From a virus (lineage: Duplodnaviria > Caudoviricetes), in the IMG/VR virus record IMGVR_UViG_3300008259_000098, positions 1 through 52,449 of that record: a stretch of DNA of 52,449 nucleotides. The stretch is one strand, 5' to 3'. This document shows, piece by piece, positions 13,928 through 40,452 of this stretch. The notes below the pieces were generated by a model. That model did no database searches, had not been told where the DNA came from, and saw only the letters and a program-made list of their open reading frames with translations. The translations under genes and the position numbers were made by a program. Position 1 is the first letter of the stretch. Each line of letters starts with the position of its first letter.

Positions 13928-16900
13928 TTATTTGTTCTTCTCATCTTTTTCAAAAATATCTAACCATTTAAACATTTTATAACCTATCACCCAATTTAAA
14001 GTTCTATAAAATGCAGGCGTTTTATCTTTCTTTTTTGCATTACCTTTAATATCAAATATACTTCTATTTTCAGCTTCACCAAATATAACATCAAGTGTTT
14101 CATCAGTAAAATTAGCAAGTGTAGATTGAAATTCAACACCTAACCCCATTAAAGGAACAGGATTTTTAAACATTGATAACCAGTCATTAGGATTAATAAT
14201 ACCTACAAGTTCCCTTCGGTATCTATTAAGAACTCTATAAAGAGTACGCGTAGCAAAGTTTTTTTTATAGTACTTATCTTCATCATCCCCACTAGATCCC
14301 ATAGCAGCTAATAACGAATAAACTATTAAAATAAATCTTAACTCTGTTGCAAGAGCTTTGATTTGTCCTTGTTTATATTCTAAAAAGTCTTCAAATCTAT
14401 AAGTACCATTTGCAATTGCTGGTATATTAGGATTCTCTTGTTTAAATCTTTCAAAAGCAGCCTTAGCTCTATTTTCATTTACACTAGTTTTCATATAACC
14501 AAATGTAAGAATTTCAGGTCCTAGCTTAATTATAATTTTTCCTATATAACCTAATAATCTAAAAGATGCTTTTTCATCAACATCCATTTGATCAGTTAAT
14601 GCGGCAATATATCTACTTTCAGTTATAGTACCTGTTCTAGGTGAATATCTTAAAGTACTTTTATAACCAGTAAATACATCATTAATACCTCTAAATCTTT
14701 CTTCAGCAAGAGCAGGTAACCAGTTTCTAAAAGTTAATGCTAATTTACCAGCCATATAAGTATTAGCTGCATTCATATCTTCAGCATTAAGACCTCCTTT
14801 AATATTACTAACAGTACTTAATACAGAACTTCTAAATTGATTATACAATACTTTACCTTTTTCAGTAACACCATTCTTATCAAGAATACCATCTATTATA
14901 AGATCTTCACCTTCAATTCTAGCACTATCTAAAATAGATTTATATTTACCAGATTCCCTATCTTTTTGAGTAAGTCTTTGTAATTTACCATCAACAATAG
15001 TATAGTTTTGAAGCATACTATACATTACTTGCTCATCAATATGTTCATCAGCTACTCTATAACCAGCCATTAATGTATCATAATTAATGTCTTTGGTTTT
15101 TTTTATTTTACCTACAAATTCATTTTTTATTTTTTTAGCAGATAATTCTTGAGCCATATCAGAACCTCGCTTATTAGCATAAGGTTGGAAGAAATTAGCT
15201 AAAGCAAAATATAATTCTTTATTTTGAAATCTATCTTTAGTAGATCTTCTAAATTGTTGTTTAGTATAATAATATCCTTTAACACCTTCAAAAAAAGCAT
15301 TACTTCTAGCTCCTGCAGCATTAACTGTCATTGATATAGGAGAAAGAGCTAGTTCTTTCATTTGATGATATTTTTTAGCTTTTACTAACCACCCACCTTC
15401 ATCTGAAATACCATATAAATGAAAATCTACTAATCTTTCAAATGTTTGATATTCATCACTTTGTTTAGATTTTTCTCTATTAGGAGTATTAATACCATTT
15501 ATTGCTTTTGTATTACCATCACTAGTAGTTTCAACAACTCCTTCAGATGCTAATATTTCTTTTAAAGCTTCCATATTACTTTCAACTTCTTTAAGATTGG
15601 CATAATTATAAGCCATTTCAGCAAATATTGTTAAACTAGTAGATAAATCAAAAGATTTAAGAGTATTATCTATTTGACCTTGTTGATTAACTATCGGATT
15701 AATAAATACTCTAGGTATTTGTCTTTTAGCTAATCCAGTTTCAGGATCTATTTCAGTAATTACTTTCATAGTATCTTGTCTAGACTCTCTATGATTTTCT
15801 TGAACAGACATTAATTGTTTAACTTTATCAGTAGATAATGTTAAATTTCCTGTTAAATACTGTTCTGTAAGATTACTTTTAATCCAAGGTACAAAGTTAT
15901 TTGGTATAGTATTATAAGGTAAATCTAGCATTATTCTAAACTCTTCCATACTATCTGACCAAAAGTTATAGTAATCTAATAATGGTTTATTGTTTTTAAT
16001 CTTTAAAAAGTCAGGATTATAATCACTTTCAGATAAACTAGACTCATCTACTTCTTGATAAATATACCAATAATCAGTATATTTTAAAGTATAGTTAGGA
16101 TTATCAGGATTATTTTCTTCAACCCATTGAGCAAATACACCATTTGTAGTTTCTTGATCTGGAGTAAAAGAGTTAGTAATCATAAATTTAAGTTTTCTAT
16201 CTTCATAAATTTCTTTATAATTATCTTTAAACTTAAGATGTTTAGTTAAAAATTGTTTATCTTTAGTATCTCTAGCTGTTTTTAATTTATCATAAAACTC
16301 TGATTGTATTTTAGTATACAAATTACCTGTTTTACTATTAACTAAAAGCTTATAAACAGCAAAACCACTATAACCATTAGCAGCTCCCCACTTTTCAATT
16401 TCTTTATTATATAAAGTAAGTTTTTTAACAAATGCTTGTAAAGATAGTCTAGTTTGATCATTAGCTAAACTAATTTTATTATAAGCTACTTTAAATATAG
16501 TATTATTAATAGCACTAAACTTTCTAAAATACTTATCAAACCAATTTAAATTCTTATCTCCTTTTAAAAGTTCTTGTTGATTAGCAGATAAGTTTCTATC
16601 TATAAGTTTTTGTTGTAATAGTTTTTCTAAAAAATCAGACTTACCATTTAATATATTAATTGCATTAATGTATTCTTCTTTTTGAGCCTTAGTTAAATTA
16701 GGTAAATCTTTAACAAATTCTAAAGCACCTGTAGCAATATTTTTAAATATTGTAATATCTGCTTTTAAATCAAGAATTTTTTCATTACTTAAATATTCAG
16801 AACTGTTAATATTATCAATGTCTTTAGTTATGTTATTAAGACCATCTAAATAATTTTTAACTATATTTTCATATTCTTGTTTAACATATTTAATATCTTT

Positions 16901-18070
16901 AGATAACATTAATTGATTTATACTAGTATTTAAATTTCTAATCCTAACTATTAATTTCTTATATTCAGGAGAACTTTGTACTAGTTTACTTGCTCTTTTA
17001 GTTAAATTGTTTTTAAGAATCAATGCTTCTTCAAGAGATTTATTTAATGTTTTACTACCTGTATCTTCTAATATGATAGGAATTTGTTGTAAAAACTCAT
17101 TAGCTTTTGTACCAATTTTAATACTTTTTATTTTACCAGTAAGAGTGTTACCAGTAGTTTTAGTTGTATCTGTTTTAAGTTTTGATTGTAAGTCCATTTG
17201 AATAGGAGCTACTCTAGCAAACCTATAACTAGTAATACCTAAAGTTTTACCCATCTCCATAAGTAATGGAATTTGAGCATTAAAATCTTCCATTTTATAA
17301 TCAGGTATCCAGTTAGCATCAGTAATCACACCTCTTTTAATAGTGTATGGTCTAGGAGTAATTGTTTTCCAGTCTATTAGACCTCCTGTCTTATCTGAAA
17401 ATACTACATGAACGTCAGCAGTACCACCTACACTTTTATATTTATTAAATAGTGTAGCTTCAACTTGAAGTAAAGCTTTACCATTAGGATCTATTTTTTT
17501 CTGTGTACCAATAATAAATTTAACATTATTAGCAACTTCTTCAACTAACATATTCCAATCATTATTACTAGGTAATCCTAATTCATTTTGAATCTCTTCT
17601 AAATTTTTAACATCAGCCTTTTTATAAACAGGGACTAACACACCAGTAGGATCATTAGCAATTAAAAACTTAAATATATCCTCTATTGCTTTATGTACTT
17701 TAGTACCAGCATTAGCTTTAATTTCATTATCAGGTAACTTAGATTCATCAGCTGCTTTATCAGCACCTCTTCTTTTAGCATATTTAGCTTTAGCAGTATC
17801 TGTAGTTCTACCTTTAAATGCTAACTTTTTAGTATCTAACCATACATAACGCATAGTTTTACCACTAGGATCTAAATGATATCCTTTAGTTAGTTCACTA
17901 TTATCTACTAACTCAGTAGTTAATTTATTTTGTATTGCTTTAAGTCTATTAAAAACATCTTCTGATGATTCATTAGCATCAGTTGATAACCAATTAGAAG
18001 TTATCTTATCATTAATAGCATCTCTAACTTCACCAATTGTTATTTTATCTGGATCTATTGAACAACTCAT
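13928..18070 (-). CDS. Large cargo/ejection protein with N-terminal PD-(D/E)xK nuclease-like domain
   Basis: GTKVHKAIE...E...GTADV...IDWKT motif set; long helical remainder; last gene of the cargo block. Confidence 0.7.
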   Translation of the reverse strand: MSCSIDPDKITIGEVRDAINDKITSNWLSTDANESSEDVFNRLKAIQNKLTTELVDNSELTKGYHLDPSGKTMRYVWLDTKKLAFKGRTTDTAKAKYAKRRGADKAADESKLPDNEIKANAGTKVHKAIEDIFKFLIANDPTGVLVPVYKKADVKNLEEIQNELGLPSNNDWNMLVEEVANNVKFIIGTQKKIDPNGKALLQVEATLFNKYKSVGGTADVHVVFSDKTGGLIDWKTITPRPYTIKRGVITDANWIPDYKMEDFNAQIPLLMEMGKTLGITSYRFARVAPIQMDLQSKLKTDTTKTTGNTLTGKIKSIKIGTKANEFLQQIPIILEDTGSKTLNKSLEEALILKNNLTKRASKLVQSSPEYKKLIVRIRNLNTSINQLMLSKDIKYVKQEYENIVKNYLDGLNNITKDIDNINSSEYLSNEKILDLKADITIFKNIATGALEFVKDLPNLTKAQKEEYINAINILNGKSDFLEKLLQQKLIDRNLSANQQELLKGDKNLNWFDKYFRKFSAINNTIFKVAYNKISLANDQTRLSLQAFVKKLTLYNKEIEKWGAANGYSGFAVYKLLVNSKTGNLYTKIQSEFYDKLKTARDTKDKQFLTKHLKFKDNYKEIYEDRKLKFMITNSFTPDQETTNGVFAQWVEENNPDNPNYTLKYTDYWYIYQEVDESSLSESDYNPDFLKIKNNKPLLDYYNFWSDSMEEFRIMLDLPYNTIPNNFVPWIKSNLTEQYLTGNLTLSTDKVKQLMSVQENHRESRQDTMKVITEIDPETGLAKRQIPRVFINPIVNQQGQIDNTLKSFDLSTSLTIFAEMAYNYANLKEVESNMEALKEILASEGVVETTSDGNTKAINGINTPNREKSKQSDEYQTFERLVDFHLYGISDEGGWLVKAKKYHQMKELALSPISMTVNAAGARSNAFFEGVKGYYYTKQQFRRSTKDRFQNKELYFALANFFQPYANKRGSDMAQELSAKKIKNEFVGKIKKTKDINYDTLMAGYRVADEHIDEQVMYSMLQNYTIVDGKLQRLTQKDRESGKYKSILDSARIEGEDLIIDGILDKNGVTEKGKVLYNQFRSSVLSTVSNIKGGLNAEDMNAANTYMAGKLALTFRNWLPALAEERFRGINDVFTGYKSTLRYSPRTGTITESRYIAALTDQMDVDEKASFRLLGYIGKIIIKLGPEILTFGYMKTSVNENRAKAAFERFKQENPNIPAIANGTYRFEDFLEYKQGQIKALATELRFILIVYSLLAAMGSSGDDEDKYYKKNFATRTLYRVLNRYRRELVGIINPNDWLSMFKNPVPLMGLGVEFQSTLANFTDETLDVIFGEAENRSIFDIKGNAKKKDKTPAFYRTLNWVIGYKMFKWLDIFEKDEKNK

Positions 18071-18297
18071 TTTATATATTCTGATTTATTTAACTTATTT
18101 ATTTTATTTCTAGATTTAGTTCTATTAACACAAAATCTAACTCTTCTATTATCAAGTATCCATATTTCACCATTGTCTAAAGCTACAGTAAAATAAAGAT
18201 AGTCTTCTTCATGTGTTTCATTAACTAAAAAAGCATATCCTTCAGCATCAAACTCAGGGATATACACAGGTATTGTGGGATTTAATTGTAGTAACAT
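18067..18297 (-). CDS. Small hypothetical phage protein
   Basis: 76 aa; TAATG and ATGA overlaps with its two neighbours. Confidence 0.75.
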   Translation of the reverse strand: MLLQLNPTIPVYIPEFDAEGYAFLVNETHEEDYLYFTVALDNGEIWILDNRRVRFCVNRTKSRNKINKLNKSEYIK

Positions 18298-20447
18298 TAT
18301 TCACATTTAATAGGTATAGTACCATTACTAACTAAACTATTATAAGCAGCAGCTTCATCACTAGATAATGATAACCCACTTTCAGTAGCTTTGTCTTCAA
18401 CACCACTAACAAACTCTTTAAATCCTTCTATATCTTTATCACTTTTTAATATATGTATTTGTTCTGGTTCAAATACTGCGTATTGAGTATCTATTCCTGT
18501 CCACATTTCAACAACATTAGTAGCAATTAACCCATCTTGATTTTCTTTTAAATTAGTAGGAATATCTTTAACTTTTTCGTTATATTGTTTAAGGTTTAAA
18601 ATAGTCATTAAGTAATGATTATTTTTCTTATTTTTTAAAATACCTAATCTTCTTTCTAATTCTCGGACTAAATTTTTTGTTTTATCCTTTATTGACTGTT
18701 TATTGTTAGCATCTTTTAAAAACTTAACAGTAAGTGAGTATCTTGATTCCTCTATAAAAGAATTTATATATTCAGGTGTAAACACATCAAAAATATTCCT
18801 ATTTGTTACTTTCCCAGAGTTACTAATTTCTCCTAAAAAGAAGTCTTTAGATTCTTTAATTAAATCTTTTAATTGATTTTTATAAGCAACAATAGGCGCT
18901 AAAACCTTTTCATCACTAACTCTATCATTTTTATAATTCTCAATAAGTTCTTCTATTTCAGAATTACGTTTTGCATTTGTGCTACCAAGTTCCTTCTTAA
19001 AACTATTGTAAGCTTTTTCTAGTTTTTTTCTATATGATTCTAAAATTGGGATTTCATTTCTCATAGGATCTGTAATTTTTTCCCACTCTTCAGCACTTAA
19101 TATATTCCCTTCTAAATCAGGTATACTATTTGTAAAGGCAAGATCAAAAACTTCTAAATGAAATTCATACACTCCTATTTGTTCAGTTACATTTTTTATT
19201 TCTTTTTCTGCACGCTTTAAAATATTGTCATCTTTCTCTATACTTTCAACTATTAATTTAGCTTTAGATTGCTCAATAGCTCTCATATCACTATCAAGAT
19301 TTTCAAGTATAGATAATACAGCTATTCTATTCAATATCTTTTTTAAGGTAGTTTCAGCATCTGTTAAATAATTAGCATATATTACTGCTTTATTATTATC
19401 TACTTTATTAAAAGTAGAATTCATTAAACTTTTACCTTTTTCTGTAAGTTTACTATTATCTGCAGAAACATAATGTTGCATATCCCAAGCAGATTTATTT
19501 TCAAAATCTTCTATTCTTGGATTTTTTAAATTAATAATAGCTTGTATTAAATCTCCTTTAGATGTATTATCTTCTTCAAAAGAAGCATCTCTCCATAATT
19601 GGGCTGACCTTTTTTTACCAAAAAAGAATAATCCTTTTTCATTTTTATTTTTCTTTTTGGTAAAATCAAAAAAACTTATTTTTTCATCTGCTCCATGATA
19701 AACAATATCTTTTACTTTACTATCAGGAAATACACTATCTAAGTATTGAGAGTATAGTTGTAAAGCTTGTTGTTTTTGTTGTGAGGTTATTTGTTCTACA
19801 CCATCTACAACTTGCTCAATTTTGTATTGACCTTTTGGTATAACAAGTCTATCTCCAATAACTTTAACTTCTCCAGCTTCTTTAACTATTTCATTAGAAA
19901 TACTTTTAGGTATTTGTATAAGATAATAACCATTTTCATCTAACTTATCAAGTTCTCTTTCTAAATCTATTCCTATATTTTCTTCACTTTTTAAATTTTT
20001 AGCTACTTCTAATTGACCATTTCCATATTCAATAGCAGTTTGTAAATCATCTGTCATTGAAATACCTTTACTTTTTAAACCTGCTCTTTTATAAAGTTCA
20101 TCTTCTCTTCCATATAATACAAGATTACCATTTTTATCTACAGTAGGTTCTTCAATTTGTCCTCTATAATAACTTTTATCATCTTGAATAACAGTTTGCT
20201 TAAATCCTAAAGCTTCATATACTTGATTAGCTAATTCAGGATTAGAATCAAATAGTTCTTCTACTCCTGGCTTAACACTCTCTGCAGTAGTAATACCCAA
20301 CTCTTGTAAAGTTGGGTATCTATCATATACTTCATTATTTGTCATCCATTTAGACACCATCATTTCAAATACTAGTGGTTTTTGTCCACTTTCAGCTAGT
20401 AACTTTTGAAACTCAGGGTTACTACTTGTTATACAAAATACAGCCAT
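18297..20447 (-). CDS. Polyvalent cargo protein with two ADP-ribosyltransferase-like domains (716 aa from internal ATG; currently in frame with the upstream ferritin-like remnant)
   Basis: Starts MAVFCITSSNPEF (Met105 of the 820-aa ORF); YYRG...GISMT...GEVKV and VYHG...GLFF...INLKNP...DG...YAVFEPEQI motif sets. Confidence 0.65.
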   Translation of the reverse strand: MAVFCITSSNPEFQKLLAESGQKPLVFEMMVSKWMTNNEVYDRYPTLQELGITTAESVKPGVEELFDSNPELANQVYEALGFKQTVIQDDKSYYRGQIEEPTVDKNGNLVLYGREDELYKRAGLKSKGISMTDDLQTAIEYGNGQLEVAKNLKSEENIGIDLERELDKLDENGYYLIQIPKSISNEIVKEAGEVKVIGDRLVIPKGQYKIEQVVDGVEQITSQQKQQALQLYSQYLDSVFPDSKVKDIVYHGADEKISFFDFTKKKNKNEKGLFFFGKKRSAQLWRDASFEEDNTSKGDLIQAIINLKNPRIEDFENKSAWDMQHYVSADNSKLTEKGKSLMNSTFNKVDNNKAVIYANYLTDAETTLKKILNRIAVLSILENLDSDMRAIEQSKAKLIVESIEKDDNILKRAEKEIKNVTEQIGVYEFHLEVFDLAFTNSIPDLEGNILSAEEWEKITDPMRNEIPILESYRKKLEKAYNSFKKELGSTNAKRNSEIEELIENYKNDRVSDEKVLAPIVAYKNQLKDLIKESKDFFLGEISNSGKVTNRNIFDVFTPEYINSFIEESRYSLTVKFLKDANNKQSIKDKTKNLVRELERRLGILKNKKNNHYLMTILNLKQYNEKVKDIPTNLKENQDGLIATNVVEMWTGIDTQYAVFEPEQIHILKSDKDIEGFKEFVSGVEDKATESGLSLSSDEAAAYNSLVSNGTIPIKCE

Positions 20448-20759
20448 TAGTGTAAGTTCTCTAATTTCTTTCTTAATATAAGAAATAGGTTCTACATTAT
20501 TAGTAATATTCATATTAGTATAGTTCATCATAAGACCAGCTTTAACATAACTCTTTTCTACTAAATCATCATTAAGATCAGCTAATGATGAGTAGAATGC
20601 ACCAAGTGCTTCATGCATAGCAAATGACTTATCTCTTGCTTGTAAATGAATTATATGTGCTTGAATCTCAACTTCAAACAAACATTGTGATATAGCTTGT
20701 ACAGCTGTTTTAGTTGAACCAGCAGGTTCCATTTGGCTTCCTTTTAATTTAGGTAACAT
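20447..20759 (-). pseudogene. Ferritin/Dps-like (DUF5856-type) gene with internal deletion and frameshift
   Basis: QAHIIHLQ...SFAMHEALGAFYSSLADLNDDLVE; the family-like end KLENLH* lies in another frame at 20467-20447. Confidence 0.65.
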
Positions 20760-20771
20760 TTATTTATATTT

Positions 20772-23700
20772 TTAAGTTAAACAAGATTTCATAAATTCAA
20801 TAGCAAATTCTCTATCAGATATTAACATATCATTTAATTGATTAATAGCATCATCTTCAGTAGTTGCTGTTTTTTTAAGTATTATATTATCCAATATAGC
20901 AAATTTCTCTTCATCTGAGAACTCTTTAAGGTTATAAAAAGTATCAGCTTCTGTAGAAACACCAGTAGATAATTTAGTAGATTCTTCAGCTAATTTATTT
21001 AAACCAACCATAAATTTAAGATCATACCCAGAATCTGTTTTAGATAAATCTACAATTTTTTGATTAACATTTGTGTAACTAACAGAACCATCTTTAAATA
21101 TTGTAATTGTTAAATCTGGGTATATAAAATCAAATGCATTTGCTTTGGCTTTAATTTCAGGTTTTCCAAGTTGTTCTAATACATATTGTTTATAGTCTTC
21201 TCTTGTTTGTTCAGATACATTTGATGTATTATAATTATATTCAATGCTAACAGATGGTTGAGTAACTTGATCTTCTAATCTTTTAAGTTCTTGCTGTAAG
21301 AATTTATATGTTTCAGGAGCTCTTGTAGGTAACTCAGCTAAACCAACACCCATTTGAGGAATTATAAGTTTATTATACTTTCTTGTATTCCATTCTGCAA
21401 TTGCTTTGTTTATATCATTAGTAATAATTTTTTTGTTTTTTTCTAGTTCAGTATCTGATTTATATGCTTCTTCACTTCTTGCAGGTAATTTTTTAGTAGA
21501 TACACCAACAGCATTTGGTTCACCACGCATTTCCTTTGCCTGACCACCTAAACCTCTCCTAATATCATTATCTCCAAATAAATATAAAGTTGTAGGATTT
21601 GCTTTTAGCTCACTTCTTAAAACAATTTTATCTGTTCTTTCAACAACACTAGTAGATGGTTGAGTAGTTTCAGTAAGTTTAGCTTGTTTAATAATATCTA
21701 AAACAGCTACACTCGCAGGCTTGTTACCTAAAATTGTTATTTGATTTTTAATATCATTAACTAAATCTTTAAAATTACTAATATTTTGAGTATAATCCAT
21801 ACCATCATACCCACCTATAGGATTTACAATATCTTCAGTTTTAGTATTTACTAACTTTACTTTACCATTATATTTAAATGTTTCAAATATTTTAAATGGA
21901 TTGAATTTTTCATTTAAATCATCAACAATATCATCAACAATATCATCTATTCCATTTTCACTATTAACATCATTATAATTATCAAATTCTTCAAACATTT
22001 CATTTTCAACACCTCCAACATCTGCTAATATATCACTTACTTCGTCACTAAGTTCTTCTTTTTTAAGTTTATCAATATATTTACTAATATTCTTTTTATT
22101 TAATTTCTGATTAAAAGAATTACTAAGCATAAACTTAACAGTAAAATCAGCTAGTTTTGCATCAGTAATTGATTTAGGATTTAAATTAACTAACGCTTCT
22201 AGGACATTTTTTTGTGCTAAATAAGGTATTACCTTAGCATATTGATAAGTACCATTACTAATACCTGATTGAAATATATTAAAAATAACTAAATCATTGT
22301 ACAACTCTTCATCAATACTTTTTAATTCTTGAAAAGCTTCAATTAAAGAGTTTGATTCACCAGTAGTTAATCGACTTAAAAACATTTTTAAGTTATCAAT
22401 TACTTGTTCTCTTTCAATATTAGTACCTATTTTTTTACTTAATATAGGTATTAAATTTTTAATAATAGGATTATTTTCATAATCTTCATTATCCTTAACT
22501 CTTTGTATCTGGTTAGGTAAACTATCAATACCTGTAAACAATTCATTAAATCTATTTTTAAATTTATCTGACTCTGTCTGTATTAAATAGTTAATAAGAT
22601 TTTCATCAAATTTTTGTATTGCTTTGTTCTTTTCAATAGTAATACCTATATGAGAAAATAAATTAAGTTTTATTTGATTTAACTTTCTTTTAACAGTTTC
22701 ATTACTTCTAGTAACATATAGTTTACCAAATACATCACTAATCAATTTTCTATTATTAACAAATGGAGCTAATAATGATTCATTTAAAAGCTTTTCTACA
22801 TCTTCTTGAGGTATAATACCACCGTCAGACATAACCTCCTCATATAGATTAATAGTAACATCATCTACTTCAGAAGGACTTTTTAAGTATTTAGTATCAG
22901 CTGATATTAAATCTTTAACTTTACCTACAGCTTTAGCTTGATCTGAAGCTGTTATATAATTTGTAAGATTAGTTAAATCATTTTTACTATATTTACCAGC
23001 TAAATATTTTACTATTTTTTTATTTGAAGTTAAACTAGGATAAGCATTCATTGATAATGCTCTTTTAGCATTTTTAATTTTTAAAAAATCTTTAACAATA
23101 TCAGAGTCTATAAGATTAATAATACTTTGAGTTGGAGTACCTCTAGTTACTAAATAACAAACAGTATTTAATGTACTAAGACAAATATTAACAAAAGCTG
23201 CATAATCATCTTTTACAATATCTACTTGACTAGTCATTAAAGCACTATATATATTTTCTACCTGCTCTGTCATATCAGTTGTCATAGTATTAGCCAGCTG
23301 TATATAACCATCAGTTATATTATTATTAGTACCAGGTATATTTAATTTTGCAGTATTATTAAGTCTTATATTATATCTTTCAGCAAGATTTTGAAAAGTA
23401 ATCCAAGTAGCAATAATACCTACACCTTTTTTACCCCCTGTAAAATTTAATACTGCATCAATTAAAGCGTTAAACTGAAACATATTAACACCTGGTTTAT
23501 TAGCTATATTTAAGTTTGCTTTTTGTTTAGTTTTAGCAATTTCTTTAAAACTACCTTCAATTACAGGACTTAAAAATCTTTTAGCTCTAGCAGGATTTAA
23601 TAATAACTGTAACTCTATATCAAGAATTCTATTTTCATGAGCTTTTCTACTATTAAGATTAGCAATGCTTAACTTATTAAATTCATCTCTATAAGCTTGT

Positions 23701-26700: not shown

Positions 26701-28499
26701 GTACTATTAGTTTCATTTCTAAAAACTGATTTCATACCATCAATAAGTTGTAAAGTAATATTTTCACCATTTATTAATCTTTGTAAAAATATACTATCAG
26801 ATGACCATAAATTTAATACTTCAGGAGCTTCTTCTTGTAGCTTATCTAAAATTAATTTTTCAAGTTGTACATCTGATTTTTTAGGATTGTTCTTTCTAAT
26901 ATTGCTTATAATATTTTTAACCCTAGTAAGTAATAAAGTTTGATAACTATGTAAGTTATTTTTAGATACTAAATTACCATCACTATTAAATAACTGACCA
27001 TCATAATCTTGTCTATAAGGACTATTATGTTCTATTAACCCGTAAGCTAATATATATAAATTTTTATCTGCTTTAGGATCAAATATTTGTTCAAAATCAA
27101 AATTTTTTGTTTTTAATTTCTTTTCTACAGCATCAATAAAATTTGATAATATTCCTATAAAAGTTTCATTTCCACTTTTAAATTGTATTGTTTTTTGAGA
27201 AGCAGTTGAATTAGGATCTATTAAATCATAATTAGCTAAAGGAAATTCTATAGCATCTATAAACTTTTTAAAATAATCAGGATTATCTGTATCATTAATA
27301 ATTTCTTTTAACTCTTTAACAAAATCTTTTTCAGTAGCAATTTTATTTAATAACCCACTTCTCCATTCAGTAAGTATTTTACGTTGAATATTATTACTAT
27401 CAGCATCTTGAGGTTTAATTATATAATTACCTTTTTCATCAGGTTGTACTACAAAAGTTATTAAGTTGTATTGATTATTACTAAATGATTGTATAAACTT
27501 AATCATTAAGTTAATCTTAGGTAAAGATGATATATTATTATCTTTTAATTTAACAGCAACAATATTACCCTTTTCATCTGTATCAATATCTAAATCATTA
27601 AACACTTTATTATACAACCATGCTAATGATGGATGTTTTTCTTTATTATCCATTATAATAGATATAAAGTTTTCTAAAGTTGGTGTTACATTAGCAAATA
27701 TATTAGTTAATAGATTATTAATCTCACTCTGATCCATAGCTGTTATTAACCCTAATGAATTTTCAGTTTTATTAATATCAAAACTATTAAAACTATTTAA
27801 GTTTTTTGAATCATTTAATTTAGGAACACCTGATAATAATAATTTAATACCTCTAGAAAAACTATCTTTTCTATTTTGTTCAATAGATTCTTTTATCCAA
27901 CTATCTTTAACTTGATCTTTAGTATTATTATTTTGAGTATCTTTATCATCATCTTGTTCAATTTCTTTAAAATTTAATACATTACTCATGTATGTTTTAA
28001 ATTCTCTGTAAACCATATTACGATGAGCTCCTTCTTCTGGATCAATCTTGAATTCTTCTTCATCTATATTAAGATTGAACTCTTCAACTATATTATTATT
28101 AGCATAATCTTGTGCTAATGCAAGACCAATATCATCATTACTAACAGAATTAGCAACATTTAACAAAGCTTTTTCATACACAGCTTCAAAAACCCCTGGA
28201 CCAATAACATCATCTAAAAGATTGGAATAATCTTGACTATTATCTAAATTATTAACTAAAGAGGCGACAAAATAATATTTTAGACTACTAAATAATTCAT
28301 TCTTTTGTGCAGCATTTAATTCAATACCCTCAAAAATAAATTTATTCCGAATATCAGGAGTATTCTTAATTATTTTATCAGCAACTTTTAAAGAAGGTAT
28401 ATTAGAATTATTTCTATAGTATAAAAGATAAGCCATATCTTCACCATGTTCAGCAGTTAATGCCTTCCATTCATCACTATTTATATTTGGACAAGTCAT
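20772..28499 (-). CDS. Virion-type DNA-dependent RNA polymerase of crAss-like phages with C-terminal accessory domains
   Basis: 2575 aa; ALRIPHQQLSS and NGSDYDIDKL (DxDxD at 24273-24287), typical of this polymerase family. Confidence 0.88.
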   Translation of the reverse strand: MTCPNINSDEWKALTAEHGEDMAYLLYYRNNSNIPSLKVADKIIKNTPDIRNKFIFEGIELNAAQKNELFSSLKYYFVASLVNNLDNSQDYSNLLDDVIGPGVFEAVYEKALLNVANSVSNDDIGLALAQDYANNNIVEEFNLNIDEEEFKIDPEEGAHRNMVYREFKTYMSNVLNFKEIEQDDDKDTQNNNTKDQVKDSWIKESIEQNRKDSFSRGIKLLLSGVPKLNDSKNLNSFNSFDINKTENSLGLITAMDQSEINNLLTNIFANVTPTLENFISIIMDNKEKHPSLAWLYNKVFNDLDIDTDEKGNIVAVKLKDNNISSLPKINLMIKFIQSFSNNQYNLITFVVQPDEKGNYIIKPQDADSNNIQRKILTEWRSGLLNKIATEKDFVKELKEIINDTDNPDYFKKFIDAIEFPLANYDLIDPNSTASQKTIQFKSGNETFIGILSNFIDAVEKKLKTKNFDFEQIFDPKADKNLYILAYGLIEHNSPYRQDYDGQLFNSDGNLVSKNNLHSYQTLLLTRVKNIISNIRKNNPKKSDVQLEKLILDKLQEEAPEVLNLWSSDSIFLQRLINGENITLQLIDGMKSVFRNETNSTGSMVEGDLWSTFINCNLHNILTPVKHSDRSSFLGIKMPYGSTDILGDFENYYSTTEWENKFKTYLYSYLRTELKRIKLIRTTKTGIPLMDKQGVDFVLFDGLFDKSENSKKIINKILEQNLDTYNLENDVNVNRAINKWVDDYLKTSVNKALQAQINFDGKGAGIDPQIAKEYFSRITDSKNDYNLLIKIAAAKHFISAVEQSKLFFGDPALYSAKAKDGILIYDMIKRLNMQSSTKQISVVDNTTNTFLNSILKSNDFKITIDGETFKYKKDFNGDINELIINDPEAISGIANELRMLFGENSSEYQAFIKGFEETDGYSMGNIFFAIETLFRTEGINPGRLELAKKELKSLTATDEELYDLYTVPEGMSANDYINNELRPFTQQKFQYVGPNYQMSREDYILNGLENGWENRIGIVGGRKTSYGFLMPSMIRGTVLEQLNNFMLQNGIDVIHFSSASKFGGSTPRDFYNTIKTEDGEFTIGFNTLAIEDNERGVLDFRYMGKQQEISYEIKDKVVDATQARKNENAGIMFNGELPIDFNGSLEEWNSLPYDVKREQSNLFNLLEQKDEAIGDYVEKLTDSLFNEYNIDNSNNITSPIEFVNLIKDAAVERGTPDNIIDAIIDWLNDDYNLKPIESLPNYQKVQYILTSIVTNNLLILKRNGTMLPQAPSTGWENASRQVLNGKFGSANYLKYYQIKFDEQDNPIEVQPAECAMPLNPKDIDRLFKQYPQSNRSINKLIDILNAELDAKFKSGNLDDVPMIKALRIPHQQLSSTDVLRVRRWLNPIYNQTILVPGEFIVKNGSDYDIDKLTIYMPNLDEFGDPVKYETEKENLFDKWFYNTIGNEVIKSDENYAALSEELIDIKEDLIINKWKVEEDFNKFYEFVESLTGLKTNKLKDAFNVLNKAKKEKLDDAIKLNEYLGNVYRDSLDKAYQAKTYIENFTELADRRTALFADVKYIQETINNILTYNNQAKIKRKDVITQKNELKDLLSTSKENIKQAYRDEFNKLSIANLNSRKAHENRILDIELQLLLNPARAKRFLSPVIEGSFKEIAKTKQKANLNIANKPGVNMFQFNALIDAVLNFTGGKKGVGIIATWITFQNLAERYNIRLNNTAKLNIPGTNNNITDGYIQLANTMTTDMTEQVENIYSALMTSQVDIVKDDYAAFVNICLSTLNTVCYLVTRGTPTQSIINLIDSDIVKDFLKIKNAKRALSMNAYPSLTSNKKIVKYLAGKYSKNDLTNLTNYITASDQAKAVGKVKDLISADTKYLKSPSEVDDVTINLYEEVMSDGGIIPQEDVEKLLNESLLAPFVNNRKLISDVFGKLYVTRSNETVKRKLNQIKLNLFSHIGITIEKNKAIQKFDENLINYLIQTESDKFKNRFNELFTGIDSLPNQIQRVKDNEDYENNPIIKNLIPILSKKIGTNIEREQVIDNLKMFLSRLTTGESNSLIEAFQELKSIDEELYNDLVIFNIFQSGISNGTYQYAKVIPYLAQKNVLEALVNLNPKSITDAKLADFTVKFMLSNSFNQKLNKKNISKYIDKLKKEELSDEVSDILADVGGVENEMFEEFDNYNDVNSENGIDDIVDDIVDDLNEKFNPFKIFETFKYNGKVKLVNTKTEDIVNPIGGYDGMDYTQNISNFKDLVNDIKNQITILGNKPASVAVLDIIKQAKLTETTQPSTSVVERTDKIVLRSELKANPTTLYLFGDNDIRRGLGGQAKEMRGEPNAVGVSTKKLPARSEEAYKSDTELEKNKKIITNDINKAIAEWNTRKYNKLIIPQMGVGLAELPTRAPETYKFLQQELKRLEDQVTQPSVSIEYNYNTSNVSEQTREDYKQYVLEQLGKPEIKAKANAFDFIYPDLTITIFKDGSVSYTNVNQKIVDLSKTDSGYDLKFMVGLNKLAEESTKLSTGVSTEADTFYNLKEFSDEEKFAILDNIILKKTATTEDDAINQLNDMLISDREFAIEFMKSCLT
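21252..21666. repeat. 13-bp direct repeat AGATGGTTGAGTA flanking one domain of the RNA polymerase gene
   Basis: Exact copies at 21252-21264 and 21654-21666, each encoding TQPS on the - strand. Confidence 0.8.
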
Positions 28500-28508
28500 A
28501 TTAAAATT

Positions 28509-31500
28509 TTATTGTTTATTACCAGTTGTAGGTATTCTGTTTAGTTTCGTTGAGCTTTTTGATCTAGTTGATCCATTTTTACAATTATCTTGTTGTTCTT
28601 TAGCTTCATCAGGAGTTGTTTTTAATGCTGTATTTGAAATACCTGTTAATGCAGCTAATGCATCTTTTAATCCTTTACTTGCTGCTTTAATATCATCTAA
28701 ATCACTTTCATCAAATCTAAGACTTTCTCCTACACCAGGACTATCTAAATCTATGTCTTCGGCTTCAGTTTTAGGTTTAGTTTTAGTTTTTTTAGTTTCA
28801 ACAACTTTTTTACTAGTATTTTTACTTGTAGTTTTTTTATTTTTTTTATCTTTTTTATTTTTTTCTTTTTGAGCAGGTCTTTTTAAAGGTTCATCAGCTA
28901 AAAAATTATCTTTAGTTGTTATTAAACCATCACCATCTGTTTTTAATATAATGTTTTTAGAAGCAAATAGTACACTTTCAGACTGATTTTTTAAATCATC
29001 CTTATTTTTTAAATCAGTTGATAATGGAGTAGATACAGCATTTGTAGTTAATATTGGATCTGATCCTTTACCTCCATTAAATAAATATGAAAGATATCCA
29101 CCTTCTATTTGCTCCCAAGATATTTCACCTGTAGTTTTATTTAAATAAGGTTTATAATAGTATCCTCCTTTTCCAGCAGCAGTTTGTAACATACTTGTAG
29201 GTATATTAACTCTTTTAGTAGCTAGAAAAGCAACAAGATTTGGAAATTTAGAATGCTTTCTTAAGTTATTAATAGGTATAGAAGTAAATATATTATTATT
29301 ACTTGGATCAGGAAAATGTATAGACCCTCCTTGAACATATATATTATTTTTATTTAATTTACCTTTTCCACTAGCAACTGCTGTTTTAGGTACTCCCCAA
29401 TAAATAATATTATTTATTAAAGATAACTTATTAGAAGATGCAAAAATAGGTAATTTACTACCTTTTTGTTTATCATAATAATATTCATTATTTTGAGCAT
29501 TGTTTATATTAATAAACAAATCTTGTAATGCACTATCTTTAACAAATCCATACTTTTCAATAATATGTAAAATTAAATTAATTTCACTATTATCTATAAA
29601 TCTTTGAGTAACATAAAAATATTCTTGTGTTTCTTTATTATAAAGAATAATTGAACCAATTTTAGCATTCTTAACTATAATATTACTACCTTGTAATTGT
29701 TGACTAGATTTAGTAACTACAGTTAAAGTTAATTTATCTAAATCTTCTTTTTTAGAAGTATCAATACCTCTCTTATATAAAAGAACATTTTTTACTGACC
29801 CATAATTACTAATCTTTTTACCATTTTTATCAGTAGTTTCTTTTTTAGTTAATAGAATACCATTAGTAACAGATGCTATAGGTAAATATACTTCACCTTC
29901 TTTAAGTTCTTCAATAATCTTATTGATAGACTCTTTATGTTTAGTTATAGCAAAATTAACAATCTCTTGTCTTATTTCACTTAAAGGTACACGATTTTCA
30001 TTTTTCTTCCAACTTAAAGGGACAGTATCATCTGCTTTAGTATTTGTAATAGCACTATAAGGCAAAGGTCCTTGATGCCCACTATGTTTCTTATAAAACT
30101 CTAACAAACCTTTCATATTGATTTTATCAATAGAACCATCTTGTTTTATTGTACCAGCAAATAGATTCTCAGTTTCAGGTAAAAATGTAAACACAAATCC
30201 ACCACTACTATCAAGTTTACCATTAAGATCAGCCTTGATTAAAGCACCTCCTTTATTAGGGTCAGTAGATACCATAGCAACTACTATAGTATTATCTGTT
30301 TCCTTACCTTTCAATGTCTTTGCAACAGCTTCTTTTAGACCCTCAGGCATTTGAGTATCTGTCTTATAATGAAATGCTCGTAAAGTATATTGAGCTGATT
30401 TATAAGGATCTTTAATATCAGGATTCATTTCTAAGAAAGAATTCCATCTTAATGCATCTTCATTTTGATTAAGTACAGGTTTACCTTGATCATCATATAA
30501 AGTAGCAAATGTTTGAGGATTTGTATATTCAACAACTTTATTAGTTGTATAATATACATTACTACTTAATGCTCCTTTATGTAAGTTTACACTAGACATA
30601 TTAGTAGGAGGATTATCTTGACTATCCTTAGGATCACTCTCTTGACTAAAAGGTATTCTAACTGCTCTTAAAGCACGATTTAAAGCTAAAGCATAATTTA
30701 TTGCTAGTTCATCTATATTAGCTTTTAAATTTTCTACAAAAGATTCTTGTCGCTTAAATTCAATAACATTATCAATTGTTTTTAATTGTTTATTTAAAAT
30801 ATCAAGATCTCGTGTAGCAATTAATATTTCATTATCAATACTTTGTTGTTCATCATATTGAGCTTTAATAAGTTGAAACTCTTCTTGTACTTTATAATAA
30901 TCTTGTAAAAATCTATCATATGCTTGTTGAGGTGTAATATTATTACGTTCAGCATACTTAGTTATACCATATTGAAATCTTGCAAATTCTTTAGGATCTT
31001 TAAGTAACTTTTCAACATTATTACTAGTTACAGGATAAAATATTTTCCACTTATTAGTAAACCAATTAGGCATATCTGCTTGTTTGGTACCAACAATTAA
31101 ATTTTTATAAGCAATTGATTTAGTTTTTAAAGCTTCAAGAAAATCTATCTTTTTAGTTAACGCATTAATTCTATCTTCAACACTACTTTTTAATTCTTCT
31201 AAATTATCTAAAGCTTCATTATAATTAGTCATATCAGCTAATGTTTCTAAATCTTCAGTAAGACTTAAACCCATTACTCTATCTATATTATCTACAAATC
31301 CACTTTCTAAAGTTTCTACAAATTGTTTAATAGAAAAGTTTTCTTTTTCTAAAGACTCTTTAATTAAATTAACTAATTGAGTTATTTCTTCTTGTTGTCT
31401 ATAATAAGCTTGTTTAGACTTTTCAACTCTTTCAATAGCCTTATTACAAGCATCTAATTGCTCAGTAAGAGATTTGATTAAATCATCAATAAACTGTTTA

Positions 31501-34500
31501 TCAACAGCATTATCTTTTACTTGTTCAGCTAATAACTTAGCTTGTTCTAATTCTTTTTCTAGTATACTTCTATTAAGTAATTCATTTTTAATACTATCAA
31601 CTTCTTTTACAATATCACGATTTAAATCATCACTAAGTTTTTGTAAAGCAGTAATCTTAGCTTGATTAGATTTTCTAATACGTAATTTAAGTTTTAATGC
31701 TTCAGCTTGTGCTTTAGGTAAAAACTTTATTTTATTATAATAGTCAATAGCAAATTTATCATCAAAACTAATTTCCTTACCTTCGGCATTTGTTATATAA
31801 GCATTATTTTCAATATCTCTAATAAATCCTCCTGATGTACTAGAAGTAATTGCTTGTTCAATTAAATTTTCATAATCTAAAGTAATTTTTTTAATACCAT
31901 TAACATCTGCTGGATTCATTTCAGCTATAATACCATCTCTTTCAGCAATTAAATCTTCTCTAATTTGATTAGCATTACTAGATTCTATTTCAAATGTTCT
32001 AGTACCTCTGCTATCAGTCATAGTAAAGTATGTACCAAAGTAAGGATTACCATCTTTATCTACATAACCAGCTTCTTTAGATCTAGTTTTAATTAAGTTT
32101 AATTTAGCGTCATTATCTAATTCAGCATTAAACTCATTCATATCTTTCTGAGCTTTATTTGCATTAGCTTCTTCAATCTTTTTAGTAACAGCAGTAACTA
32201 AATCAGAAAAATCATTCTTACTAAGTTGAGCTAAAGTAATATTAGCTGTTGCTCTCTCACCAATAAGATTAGCATAATCTTCAAATAGTTGTCTAGTTTG
32301 TTTAACATCAACTCCATTAAGTTTATCATCAAGAGTTCTCATAAACTTATTAAACTCATCAATAATAGCATTTCTAGTAGCTTTACCTTGATTAAAATCT
32401 TCTAAAAAACTATCATCTACAAGTTTTTGTAAATTCATTACAGCATTTACTTGATCAGCTTCTTTATCATTAGCTACTTTATAGTTTTGAGATAATATAT
32501 TAGATATTTTACTTTTTAAATCAAGTATTCTTTCATCTCTTTTCTTACCCATATAAAACTGATTAGTAAGAATATCTCTAGTTAATACTTCTACATCTTT
32601 ACCTTCAGCATTCTTTATTTTAATAAATGTGTTTTGATAAAGTGTACTTAAACTATCTTTTAAATCTCTAAGTTGTTTAACTTCATTAACACTCTTATTA
32701 ACTGATGCACTAATAGCAGATCTTATTTCATCATCAGATTTATTTTCAAAATAAGATACTTCTTGACCATCAGCATTTATATAACTATATTTCTTTTTTA
32801 ATTCAGCAACATCTAAATCTGATTCAGATTCTATTAAATCTAACAAGTCTTCTAACTTACCAGCTTCAATAAAAGAGTTAGCCATATTAAAAAACTTTTC
32901 ATGTTTTAAGTCTTCATAAGTTTTTCTATCATTATCAAGAATAGCATTATTTTGTTGACCTGATAATGATATATCTGTATAAAATGCTTTAGCTAAAATA
33001 GATTCTTTACTGTTAGTTAAATTACCTTCTTGAATATATTTATTAAGATTTTCTACAGCTTTAGCTTCTTGTTCAGTTCTTTGTCTAACATCTTTAAATT
33101 CACTTCTTATACCACCACCAACACCTGGTATACCTATTATACCAAATAGTGCACCAGCAAAAGCATTTTCTAAACCTTCTGCTGTACCATAAGCTTGAGA
33201 AAAACCTTCACTTAATGCTTTACCTAAACTATTCATATAATCATTTCCATTATATAAAGAGTTAATGTATGCGCCTGTACCTTTATCAATAAAGAACTGT
33301 ATTTGTTCTTCTTGAGATTCTCTTAAAGCATTTAAACCAACATTTTTTAAAGCTGTTTTAGTAACTGAAGGTGCAACATAATTATATCCTTTAGCAATAG
33401 TACCTTCTGTTTTACCTAATACATTTTTTAAATTATAATCATAAGGTTTTAAAAAGTTATTTCTCCAACCTGCAAAGTTACTAGCACTTAATAAAGTAGC
33501 ATTAGCTAACCAAGAAACATTTTGATATGCTTCTACTTGTTTATCAATTCTACCAAATTGTTCATCATATTCTTCTTTAGTTATAAATCCTCCATCTAAT
33601 TGCTGTTTTAAATTATCTTCTAAAGATTTTCTATATTGATTACCATTACCAATAGCTTCCATTCTAGCTTCACCAAAAGAACCTAAAATTGATGCTCCTG
33701 CTTGTACTTGAAAAGTTTTAGCTCTAACTTTTTGAGCAGCATTAGCAAAATCTTTTAATACTGCTTCTGAAGCTGCATCATACATTGCTGGATTATTTCT
33801 AGCAATATTATATATTTCATCAATACCTTTAGATGCAATATCTTCACCTAATCCTAATTTTGTAGCAGCATTTTGTATAGTTTTAAATTCATTTCTAGCA
33901 GCTTCTAATCTAGTTAATCTTGATAGTCCTGCAGCAGCTAATTTACTAGCACCCATAGCTCCTACCATAAAACCAGCATTCTTTAAAATATTTTCACCCC
34001 AAAAATTAGTTATACCAGATGCTCCTCCAAAACCAATAGCATTTTCATACCACTCATTATCCATTTCTTTTTTAGTTCTATAATTAACTAAAACATCACT
34101 ATCAAGCCATTCGTTAAATCCATTTAAATTTCTTGATACAGGATTATCTATAAATGCATTAAGAACAGATTTTGTACCTGACCACCAATCATCAGTTTTT
34201 TCATCTGCAAGTAATTCAGTACCTTTTAAACCCATATTAATTATACCTGCAGGAATACCTGCAAATGTATCTGCAAATGTAGTACCAGCAATAGCACCTA
34301 ATTTAAGTACACTATTAGTAAGCCTATCATAAAAAGGTTGTTCTTGAGCTCTAGCTTCTTGTAAGGCTGCAACTTTATCAGCCATATCACCATACTGAGG
34401 CACATTAAAATCTTGTGCATATTGAGATTCTTTAAACCCATACATAGTAGTAGCACCTTGTGGGCGTACTGCTAATAAGTTAGCAAAATCTTCTTGTTTG

Positions 34501-34532
34501 TATTGAGATAATGATTTATTATTTTCTGGCAT
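28509..34532 (-). CDS. Large cargo/ejection protein, probably membrane-inserting
   Basis: 2007 aa; Gly/Ala-rich hydrophobic segments in the N-terminal part (AGFMVGAMGA, AFAGALFGIIGIPGVGGG), long coiled coils; immediately upstream of the RNA polymerase. Confidence 0.7.
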   Translation of the reverse strand: MPENNKSLSQYKQEDFANLLAVRPQGATTMYGFKESQYAQDFNVPQYGDMADKVAALQEARAQEQPFYDRLTNSVLKLGAIAGTTFADTFAGIPAGIINMGLKGTELLADEKTDDWWSGTKSVLNAFIDNPVSRNLNGFNEWLDSDVLVNYRTKKEMDNEWYENAIGFGGASGITNFWGENILKNAGFMVGAMGASKLAAAGLSRLTRLEAARNEFKTIQNAATKLGLGEDIASKGIDEIYNIARNNPAMYDAASEAVLKDFANAAQKVRAKTFQVQAGASILGSFGEARMEAIGNGNQYRKSLEDNLKQQLDGGFITKEEYDEQFGRIDKQVEAYQNVSWLANATLLSASNFAGWRNNFLKPYDYNLKNVLGKTEGTIAKGYNYVAPSVTKTALKNVGLNALRESQEEQIQFFIDKGTGAYINSLYNGNDYMNSLGKALSEGFSQAYGTAEGLENAFAGALFGIIGIPGVGGGIRSEFKDVRQRTEQEAKAVENLNKYIQEGNLTNSKESILAKAFYTDISLSGQQNNAILDNDRKTYEDLKHEKFFNMANSFIEAGKLEDLLDLIESESDLDVAELKKKYSYINADGQEVSYFENKSDDEIRSAISASVNKSVNEVKQLRDLKDSLSTLYQNTFIKIKNAEGKDVEVLTRDILTNQFYMGKKRDERILDLKSKISNILSQNYKVANDKEADQVNAVMNLQKLVDDSFLEDFNQGKATRNAIIDEFNKFMRTLDDKLNGVDVKQTRQLFEDYANLIGERATANITLAQLSKNDFSDLVTAVTKKIEEANANKAQKDMNEFNAELDNDAKLNLIKTRSKEAGYVDKDGNPYFGTYFTMTDSRGTRTFEIESSNANQIREDLIAERDGIIAEMNPADVNGIKKITLDYENLIEQAITSSTSGGFIRDIENNAYITNAEGKEISFDDKFAIDYYNKIKFLPKAQAEALKLKLRIRKSNQAKITALQKLSDDLNRDIVKEVDSIKNELLNRSILEKELEQAKLLAEQVKDNAVDKQFIDDLIKSLTEQLDACNKAIERVEKSKQAYYRQQEEITQLVNLIKESLEKENFSIKQFVETLESGFVDNIDRVMGLSLTEDLETLADMTNYNEALDNLEELKSSVEDRINALTKKIDFLEALKTKSIAYKNLIVGTKQADMPNWFTNKWKIFYPVTSNNVEKLLKDPKEFARFQYGITKYAERNNITPQQAYDRFLQDYYKVQEEFQLIKAQYDEQQSIDNEILIATRDLDILNKQLKTIDNVIEFKRQESFVENLKANIDELAINYALALNRALRAVRIPFSQESDPKDSQDNPPTNMSSVNLHKGALSSNVYYTTNKVVEYTNPQTFATLYDDQGKPVLNQNEDALRWNSFLEMNPDIKDPYKSAQYTLRAFHYKTDTQMPEGLKEAVAKTLKGKETDNTIVVAMVSTDPNKGGALIKADLNGKLDSSGGFVFTFLPETENLFAGTIKQDGSIDKINMKGLLEFYKKHSGHQGPLPYSAITNTKADDTVPLSWKKNENRVPLSEIRQEIVNFAITKHKESINKIIEELKEGEVYLPIASVTNGILLTKKETTDKNGKKISNYGSVKNVLLYKRGIDTSKKEDLDKLTLTVVTKSSQQLQGSNIIVKNAKIGSIILYNKETQEYFYVTQRFIDNSEINLILHIIEKYGFVKDSALQDLFININNAQNNEYYYDKQKGSKLPIFASSNKLSLINNIIYWGVPKTAVASGKGKLNKNNIYVQGGSIHFPDPSNNNIFTSIPINNLRKHSKFPNLVAFLATKRVNIPTSMLQTAAGKGGYYYKPYLNKTTGEISWEQIEGGYLSYLFNGGKGSDPILTTNAVSTPLSTDLKNKDDLKNQSESVLFASKNIILKTDGDGLITTKDNFLADEPLKRPAQKEKNKKDKKNKKTTSKNTSKKVVETKKTKTKPKTEAEDIDLDSPGVGESLRFDESDLDDIKAASKGLKDALAALTGISNTALKTTPDEAKEQQDNCKNGSTRSKSSTKLNRIPTTGNKQ

Positions 34533-36091: not shown

Positions 36092-36097
36092 TTTTTT
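36052..36097 (-). promoter_or_regulatory. Programmed -1 frameshift signal
   Basis: A_AAA_AAG at 36097-36091, TAG, 6-nt spacer, 9-bp stem CTCCAGTAG/CTGCTGGAG with a 15-nt loop. Confidence 0.75.
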
Positions 36098-38166: not shown

Positions 38167-38187
38167 ATTTATCTTTTTATTATGAAT

Positions 38188-38227
38188 ATAATAATAGTAG
38201 TCCTATTTCTAAGACTACTATTATTAT
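38188..38227. terminator. Perfect 15-bp intergenic hairpin (terminator or processing site)
   Basis: ATAATAATAGTAGTC (38188-38202), 10-nt loop, GACTACTATTATTAT (38213-38227). Confidence 0.65.
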
Positions 38228-38268
38228 TTTTAATATAACTATTAATTATTATTTTTAGGTTCAGTTTG

Positions 38269-40446: not shown

Positions 40447-40452
40447 AATTAA

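Follow-up and report, generated by a model that had tools for sequence, protein, structure and literature searches.

The stretch of DNA analysed here (the window) is the 52,449-base IMG/VR record IMGVR_UViG_3300008259_000098, which has a G+C content of ~27% and represents ~54% of a phage genome. Its subject is a row of four giant genes and the cysteine (Cys) residues at the ends of their products. The plus-strand half of the window is devoted to replication and nucleotide metabolism (DnaB-like helicase, primase, dUTPase, ribonucleotide reductase, PhoH), and the virion genes make up the minus-strand half. The open reading frame (ORF) of 2575 amino acids (aa) had been labelled RNA polymerase (RNAP) in a first-pass annotation of the sequence, and this label is right. 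The ORF contains the catalytic motif GSDYDIDK, which is of the DxDxD type, and matches the virion RNAP gp66 of Cellulophaga phage phi14:2 (g066 of NC_021806, 'Catalytic RNA polymerase subunit') with 23.7% identity over aa 1022-1418 (tblastn, E 2e-6). Gut crAss phages were matched by the same ORF in tblastn searches. The motif and the level of identity of the phi14:2 and gut matches (~22-24%) identify the window as part of a distant crAss-like phage.

The four giant proteins and the features next to them are listed in the table, where each protein is named as a wagon of the putative protein train discussed below; head and tail denote the N- and C-terminal end of a chain. The phi14:2 proteins (record annotation) and those of crAss001 are present in the virion by mass spectrometry, and the four window proteins are presumably likewise packaged and ejected. 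The six terminal Cys codons reported in the first-pass annotation agree exactly with the translations of the minus-strand ORFs, and its Cys counts of 2, 6, 2 and 1 for the 2007-, 2575-, 716- and 1380-aa proteins are correct. The translations also confirm the polarity it described: the first protein has no head Cys, the last has no tail Cys and the middle two have both. Cys 1984 of the 2007-aa protein (codon 28581-28583) is 24 residues from the end and is followed by a basic 23-residue tail. Head Cys 3 of the RNAP (28491-28493) lies inside a portable 'CPN' head module, and its tail Cys 2573 (20781-20783), third from last, inside a conserved ~55-aa tail module.

Features of the window at the four-gene locus (positions in the window; Cys numbers are residues of the protein)
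Feature	Position	Strand	Cys and other remarks
2007-aa protein, putative first wagon (possibly gp67/gp47-like)	28509..34532	-	Cys 1029 and 1984; no head Cys
2575-aa predicted virion RNA polymerase, putative wagon	20772..28499	-	Cys 3, 615, 1313, 1773, 1781 and 2573
716-aa protein, putative middle wagon	18297..20447 (ATG 20447)	-	Cys 5 (20433-20435) and Cys 715 (18303-18305); ART-PolyVal domain
1380-aa protein, putative last wagon	13928..18070	-	sole Cys is residue 3 (18062-18064); no tail Cys
76-aa ORF between the 716-aa and 1380-aa genes	18067..18297	-	single internal Cys
DUF5856 (Dps/ferritin-like) gene remnant	20448..20759	-	Pfam/PHROG matches; DNA alignment

If the same numbers of Cys are distributed at random, the joint probability of the head/tail pattern is 3.4e-13 for the window; for the corresponding pattern of phi14:2 it is 3.7e-11. 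Among the 31 other window ORFs of at least 80 aa none has a Cys in its first 6 residues, and one has a Cys in its last 4, namely the ribonucleotide reductase with 12 Cys. The interior of the four giants holds 5 Cys in 6678 residues, compared to 0.61% Cys across the window ORFs. Cys is entirely absent from the four adjacent virion ORFs at 34538-42627 (2441 aa), and the non-virion ORFs of the window have an ordinary Cys content.

Conservation of the terminal cysteines

Terminal Cys were surveyed in related phages, a check proposed in the first-pass annotation, and were found to be conserved and polarised in 5/5 related viral contigs and in 14/14 named phages. The five contigs (L005-L009, RNAP 42-70% identical) keep the tail and the head Cys at all three junctions. 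The 2007-like proteins of these contigs contain 1-2 Cys, including one at a distance of 17-77 residues from the C-end. Their RNAPs carry a head Cys between residues 3 and 5 and a tail Cys at one of the last three residues. The middle proteins (496-1144 aa) contain two Cys and no more, a head Cys at residue 2-5 and a tail Cys that is the last or penultimate residue, and the 1380-like last proteins a single one, at 3-6. Three further metagenome contigs agree at the first junction. Thirteen RNAP homologs were found; C3, C1781 and C2573 are invariant in 11 aligned sequences of 41-100% identity, the window's own included. A Cys 17-77 residues from the end was present in all 2007-like relatives with the C-end in view (7/7; the sole Cys in 5/7), and a single Cys at residue 3 in all close homologs of the 1380-aa protein (9/9).

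The named phages were phi14:2, crAss001, cr128_1, cr116_1, cr108_1, cr55_1, cr4_1, cr60_1, cr6_1, cr7_1, cr271_1, cr11_1, cr110_1 and Flavobacterium phage Fpv1 (n = 14). All of their junctions (18/18) combine a tail Cys, 0-9 residues from the C-end, with a head Cys at residue 3-6 of the partner protein; in cr110_1 the partner head Cys is residue 17 by the annotated start. The head/tail polarity thus holds order-wide. In phi14:2, g067 (1797 aa) has one Cys, the last residue, the RNAP g066 (2180 aa) has Cys only at 3 and 2179, and g065 (1421 aa) only at 3. The single Cys of crAss001 gp47 is the third residue from the end, that of gp49 is residue 5, and gp50 (2412 residues) has three, at 5, 1334 and 2404. 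The phi14:2 proteins gp67/gp66/gp65 and the crAss001 proteins gp47/gp50/gp49 thereby resemble the window proteins, which are presumably virion-packaged too, as giant proteins with a two-barrel DxDxD RNAP and the same Cys polarity. The window phage differs in being distantly related and in having a fourth, inserted wagon. The available part of the crAss001 structure report (PMC10172136) lists gp45, gp46, gp47, gp49 and gp50 as cargo.

Profile comparison (hhalign) gave tentative matches of the outer two proteins to those of phi14:2. The 2007-like alignment (7 sequences) matched gp67 with a probability of 69% (E 4.4e-5), over the N-terminal 176 columns only, and the 1380-like alignment (5 sequences) matched gp65 with a probability of 10% (E 0.003, 508 columns). 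The 1380-aa protein also shares position, size and head Cys with gp65. In the first-pass annotation, the coupling was expected to follow gene order. This was not borne out as a rule: crAss001, cr128_1 and cr116_1 encode the tail-only protein on the opposite strand with the polarity intact, so that the rule tracks the proteins and not a shared operon.

For an unbiased sample, 1.84 billion representatives were searched with a profile built on the 1380-like proteins, which gave 800 hits; the best 150, a diverse set, were analysed. In 129 of these, one of the first 7 residues is a Cys (position 3 in 70, position 4 in 36), and in 117 this Cys is the only one. Only 22 of the 151 Cys in 238,348 residues lie elsewhere than at the head, and none of the 150 proteins has a Cys in its last 10 residues. 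The 21 proteins without a head Cys comprise ~10 that are N-terminally truncated by their match coordinates, 6 fused giants and ~5 apparent true exceptions. In an alignment of 60 family members with a mean identity of 28%, C3 is one of 13 invariant columns.

The junctions of 26 further loci, searched with a 10-sequence alignment, behaved in the same way. A head Cys was present in all informative loci (20/20). The nearest tail-bearing upstream ORF has a Cys 0-3 residues from its end in 17 of the 18 loci with upstream sequence, and at -13 in the other. The apparent exceptions L037, L043, L050 and L053 are explained by a GTG start or small inserted genes.

Fused genes, portable modules and exchanged cargo

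In part of the family the giant proteins are joined into one chain. The proteins P0012 and P0013 comprise a long N-terminal part and the RNAP, which is recognised in both by its profile. Their only Cys is the last or the third-last residue. The N-part of P0012, and of P0012 only, matches the 2007-like N-domain with an hhalign probability of 94%; BLASTP of the 2007-aa protein against P0012 and P0013 gave no significant match, and the shared N-domain is seen by profile comparison only. In P0150 and P0124 the RNAP is fused to a 1380-like part, and the single Cys is at 3. Four still longer proteins (P0097, P0106, P0074 and P0138; 4293-5894 aa) carry RNAP and 1380-like parts after a long N-part and have 0-1 Cys, none of them terminal. 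Their N-parts did not match the 2007-like profile, and a local hmmsearch with that profile matched none of the giants. The loci of P0012 and P0013 were not found among the viral contigs searched, and no head or tail module without its Cys was detected inside the fused proteins. A two-protein state is found in genomes of Suoliviridae, in cr108_1 and in Fpv1. The available part of a preprint on gp66 reports that the proteins of the RNAP module are fused into one polyprotein in some phages (Drobysheva, 10.1101/2020.03.07.982082). The junction Cys pair is present where the genes are separate and absent where they are fused. The pair thus sits where the peptide bond is missing, which argues against an N-to-C intramolecular bond and against bonding to third parties.

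The head modules recur on different proteins. The head module of the 716-aa protein (first ~52 residues, 85-100% identical among relatives) was found on 15 proteins of 396-1028 aa, and all of the 14 that have an intact N-end carry Cys 5 and a second-to-last Cys. The middles of these proteins differ: they hold ART-PolyVal, a zeta-toxin-like plus an AAA domain, or nothing known. In the 716-aa protein itself, ART-PolyVal (PF18760) scored 37.2 bits, above the Pfam gathering cut-off of 31.2, at aa 352-447 of the 820-aa frame described below. Mini wagons of 141 and 190 aa in the junction survey have Cys only at both ends. Thirteen members of the 1380-like family begin with the 'CPN' head module of the RNAP, as do the post-RNAP proteins of cr108_1, cr55_1, cr4_1 and cr6_1, in each case at the extreme N-end. 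As both ends are kept although the middles are swapped, new effectors can be hitched in. The proposal that new effectors are insertable by carrying both ends was thus borne out by middle proteins that keep both terminal Cys with exchanged cargo domains.

None of the six terminal pieces matched Pfam above the cut-off. The alignment of two N-termini noted in the first-pass annotation was found again by hhalign in the same register; the match itself is weak (E 0.0027, probability 11%) and BLASTP finds none. A complex prediction for the RNAP tail module (20-80) with the 716-aa head module (1-62) scored 0.21 and 0.23, with the mark at 0.32, which counts neither way. Twenty of the other window ORFs were scanned against Pfam, in a window that holds 54% of the genome, and no thiol oxidase or thioredoxin was found among them.

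Two further observations concern the cargo. After the head module, a linker-like motif (KPGV.ELF.SNP.LAN.VYEALGF, aa 51-86 of the 716-aa protein) recurs inside P0176, P0177 and P0184, as if it marked the domain borders of swappable cargo. Within the RNAP, the stretch from the core to the tail module (aa ~2250-2520) is swapped among homologs: the window, P0004 and P0005 have DUF7831 (Pfam; aa 2290-2403 of the window RNAP) and others have other inserts, so that the RNAP itself carries a variable passenger domain.

A candidate disulfide coupling and its alternatives

One solved structure bears on the terminal Cys. According to the available part of a cryo-electron microscopy study of the Anabaena cyanopodophage A-4L (PNAS 2025, PMC12002296), Cys1715 of gp27 is disulfide-bonded to Cys5 of gp26, and the C-terminal helix of gp27 is docked into gp26. 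In the A-4L genome (NC_024358) the two genes are adjacent, and these are the sole Cys of gp27 (1717 aa) and gp26 (1114 aa). The A-4L pair resembles the window proteins in that a giant ejection protein with its sole Cys third from last is followed by one with its sole Cys at residue 5. The same signature of terminal Cys in otherwise Cys-poor proteins is present in the window phage, and the A-4L structure shows that it can be a real inter-protein disulfide. A-4L differs in having one link between two proteins, no RNAP and, in the available part of the report, a pentameric ring around the portal axis. The window would have three links in series, judged from the genes, with a polymerase and a swappable effector wagon. 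The available part of the A-4L paper does not generalise the link to other phages. The kind of coupling considered here is known from this one solved structure.

These comparisons suggest that the ejected cargo proteins are probably coupled head to tail by redox-cleavable disulfides in the mature particle. The proteins would then behave as a split polyprotein, in which each tail Cys is bonded to the next head Cys in the order 2007-aa protein, RNAP, 716-aa protein and 1380-aa protein. Cognate docking would be mediated by the short conserved head and tail modules flanking the Cys, which would thus select the partner. Purging Cys from the remaining protein, as in other ejected phage proteins, would ensure that only the intended links form. 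As the Cys lie only a few residues from the termini, a linked junction would barely exceed the width of one unfolded chain. The train of ~6,700 residues could therefore pass the tail as if it were one polypeptide, much as in crAss-like phages whose proteins are fused into a polyprotein. In the reducing host cytoplasm the links would be cut and the polymerase and effector wagons freed. In crAss-like virions such bonds, whenever they form, may serve ejection or co-packaging, and the direction in which the train travels is likewise a presumption.

Several observations weigh against such a coupling. No homology of the window proteins to A-4L gp27 or gp26 was detected by hhalign (probability 0.13% and 0.16%), so that they can be said to work like these proteins and not to be members of the same protein families. 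The bond would also have to form despite a reducing cytoplasm and, in gut phages, a life without oxygen. The tail Cys of the 2007-like proteins, 17-77 residues from the end, means that this junction would carry a side branch. Among the RNAP homologs, P0014 has no terminal Cys, and five 1380-like proteins (P0069, P0105, P0116, P0120 and P0129) seem intact at the N-end yet lack the head Cys. The giants of Intestiviridae keep many internal Cys (15 in cr271_1), so the Cys purge is not universal. Many of the surveyed loci are closely related or duplicated (L028/L034, L040/L045, L032 = L009), which makes the counts ones of sequences and not of independent events. In the window itself, the head Cys of the 716-aa protein may be buried, as it would be residue 109 of a fused 820-aa product.

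The same comparative pattern fits any one-to-one contact between a tail Cys and a head Cys, for instance a non-covalent docking of the terminal modules in which the paired Cys bridge a metal (two-coordinate Cu(I), or Zn shared by several chains). Such a bridge, which the first-pass annotation had allowed for, could form during assembly in the reducing cytoplasm. It is nonetheless unlikely, given that the head and tail alignments show no additional conserved ligand (His, Cys, Asp or Glu) beside the Cys and that the sole solved case with this signature is a disulfide (PMC12002296, available part). The terminal Cys might instead bond another virion component (portal, capsid-interior or tail cargo proteins) or act as a packaging mark. 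The available part of the crAss001 report describes disulfides that join the tail hub to ring proteins and others within the gp57 dimer (PMC10172136), and other virion proteins of phi14:2 and crAss001 contain Cys. This explanation appears quite improbable, because it accounts neither for a first protein without head Cys and a last one without tail Cys nor for the joint loss of both junction Cys on gene fusion, and because the four neighbouring virion ORFs of the window are free of Cys.

That the two-ended proteins close on themselves by an N-to-C intramolecular disulfide, with the two single-Cys proteins paired together, would agree with the one Cys at each end of the RNAP and the 716-aa protein. 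It is very improbable in view of the fusions: 2007-like and RNAP fusions lack the RNAP head Cys and keep the tail Cys, and RNAP and 1380-like fusions keep the head and lack the tail. Moreover, the two-protein systems of cr271_1, cr11_1, Fpv1 and A-4L show only the tail-then-head arrangement. A chance origin, or a side effect of some nucleotide signal at the borders of genes, can draw on nothing but the small Cys number per protein. It is practically negligible beside the joint probabilities given above and is refuted by the surveys, in which the pattern persists with partners on opposite strands or split by inserted genes. A lipobox, a CaaX box and a split intein were also considered and dropped: there is no signal peptide, the distance of the Cys from the end varies between 0 and 9 residues and intein blocks are absent.

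Disulfide coupling can be set beside other systems of ejected or translocated proteins. In the ejection operon of Schitoviridae (N4 gp50, DEV gp71-gp73), Cys suppression is ascribed to passage through the periplasm in the available part of PMC11445570. The ejected giants, including the virion RNAP, are nearly Cys-free there as well; however, Cys are removed altogether, whereas the window proteins keep one at each partner-facing end. In favour of the coupling, inter-subunit disulfides are known from the crAss001 virion, in other proteins, according to the accessible text of the crAss001 atlas (Bayfield 2023, PMC10172136), in which the word 'cysteine' does not appear. The available part of the gp66 preprint mentions neither cysteine nor disulfide (10.1101/2020.03.07.982082). 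No published statement of a terminal-Cys rule for crAss-like phages was found, supplements and the journal version of the gp66 work being outside the coverage.

AB toxins offer an analogy of mechanism only. Their interchain disulfide, between two chains made from one precursor, is reduced in the target cytosol after translocation. The likeness is a redox-cleavable covalent tie that survives outside the cell and in a narrow channel and is cut in the cytoplasm; sequence and setting are unrelated. The polyvalent proteins of phages and conjugative elements (Iyer et al. 2017) reportedly join effector domains within one polypeptide. The 716-aa wagon resembles them in carrying ART-PolyVal, and its relatives swap in zeta-toxin-like or other domains. 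In the window phage, by contrast, the joining would be between separate polypeptides, via terminal Cys.

A wider reading is possible, which we regard as doubtful. In it, Crassvirales and, independently, at least one cyanopodophage would share a portable coupler code, in which one-Cys modules hitch any wagon into a redox-released train. Such wagons would include RNA polymerase, ADP-ribosyltransferases, zeta-toxin-like enzymes and, at the small end, a 141-aa stub, and cognate head-tail pairing would set the order of host entry. Cys pairs would be freely interchangeable with gene fusion and fission, and the ferritin-like genes seen at the junctions would assist in making the links or in shielding them.

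The question bears on how, and in what order, podophages pass megadalton protein loads through a narrow tail. If true, the coupling rule would explain the stoichiometry and order of separately encoded cargo proteins, the interchange of fused and split gene forms in crAss-like phages and the addition of new anti-host effectors. It would also serve as an annotation rule by which the proteins injected by the human gut's most abundant phages could be recognised.

Genes at the junctions and further observations

The first-pass annotation started the 716-aa protein at the ATG of MAVFC. This start is ancestral, since relatives have a stop before MAVFC, yet in the window the frame runs on upstream to 20759 and thus encodes 820 aa. 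The 104 residues gained in this way come from the first part of a DUF5856 gene whose last ~38 codons and stop are gone, so that the remnant is fused in frame to the 716-aa gene. DNA alignment showed that ~100 nt are deleted in the window relative to L006 and L007, which fused the two frames. A separate, intact DUF5856 ORF of 136 aa is present in four relatives, L005, L006 (17510-17920), L007 and L009. In the close relative G001 and in L005, L007 and L009 the stop of this ORF abuts the ATG of MAVFC. The ancestral status of the start follows from this separate gene. The fusion in the window could be a real variant or an assembly error.

Ferritin-like genes lie exactly between tail-Cys and head-Cys genes in several lineages (L008 18117-18470, L050 891-1388, L053 2575-3069 and window 20448-20759). 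They belong to two Pfam families, DUF5856 and Ferritin PF00210 (E 1e-20).

The 76-aa ORF, which the first-pass annotation had missed, is overlapped on both sides, by the 716-aa gene with its stop and by the 1380-aa gene with its start. Its sequence is identical across L006, L007 and L031 and almost so in L005, although the flanking 1380-like proteins are only ~50-75% identical. A Pfam scan gave no match.

Possible mobile elements are seen at other loci. In L037 (568-1281), a GIY-YIG homing endonuclease gene lies between a 141-aa stub with head and tail Cys and the 1380-like gene, which has its GTG start there. In two Steigviridae, L021 (cr108_1, 16534-16825) and L027 (cr116_1, 16765-17606), the RNAP gene is broken within the catalytic motif, GSD|(Y/F)D.DK, and the gap of cr116_1 holds a 215-aa ORF. 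These breaks look like an intron or homing-element insertion at the active site.

The giant ORFs of the Suoliviridae L016 (cr4_1), L024 (cr60_1), L025 (cr6_1) and L026 (cr7_1) contain 18-148 in-frame stops when read with table 11, in agreement with the stop-codon recoding that is known for these phages. In their annotated frames the terminal Cys rule still holds.

At the front of the 1380-like family, six residues are invariant in 60 sequences (G122, H126, E204, D219, D233 and K235; window aa 122-235), and the 1380-aa protein matches PHROG 298 'exonuclease'. These features suggest that the last wagon starts with a domain like that of PD-(D/E)XK nucleases.

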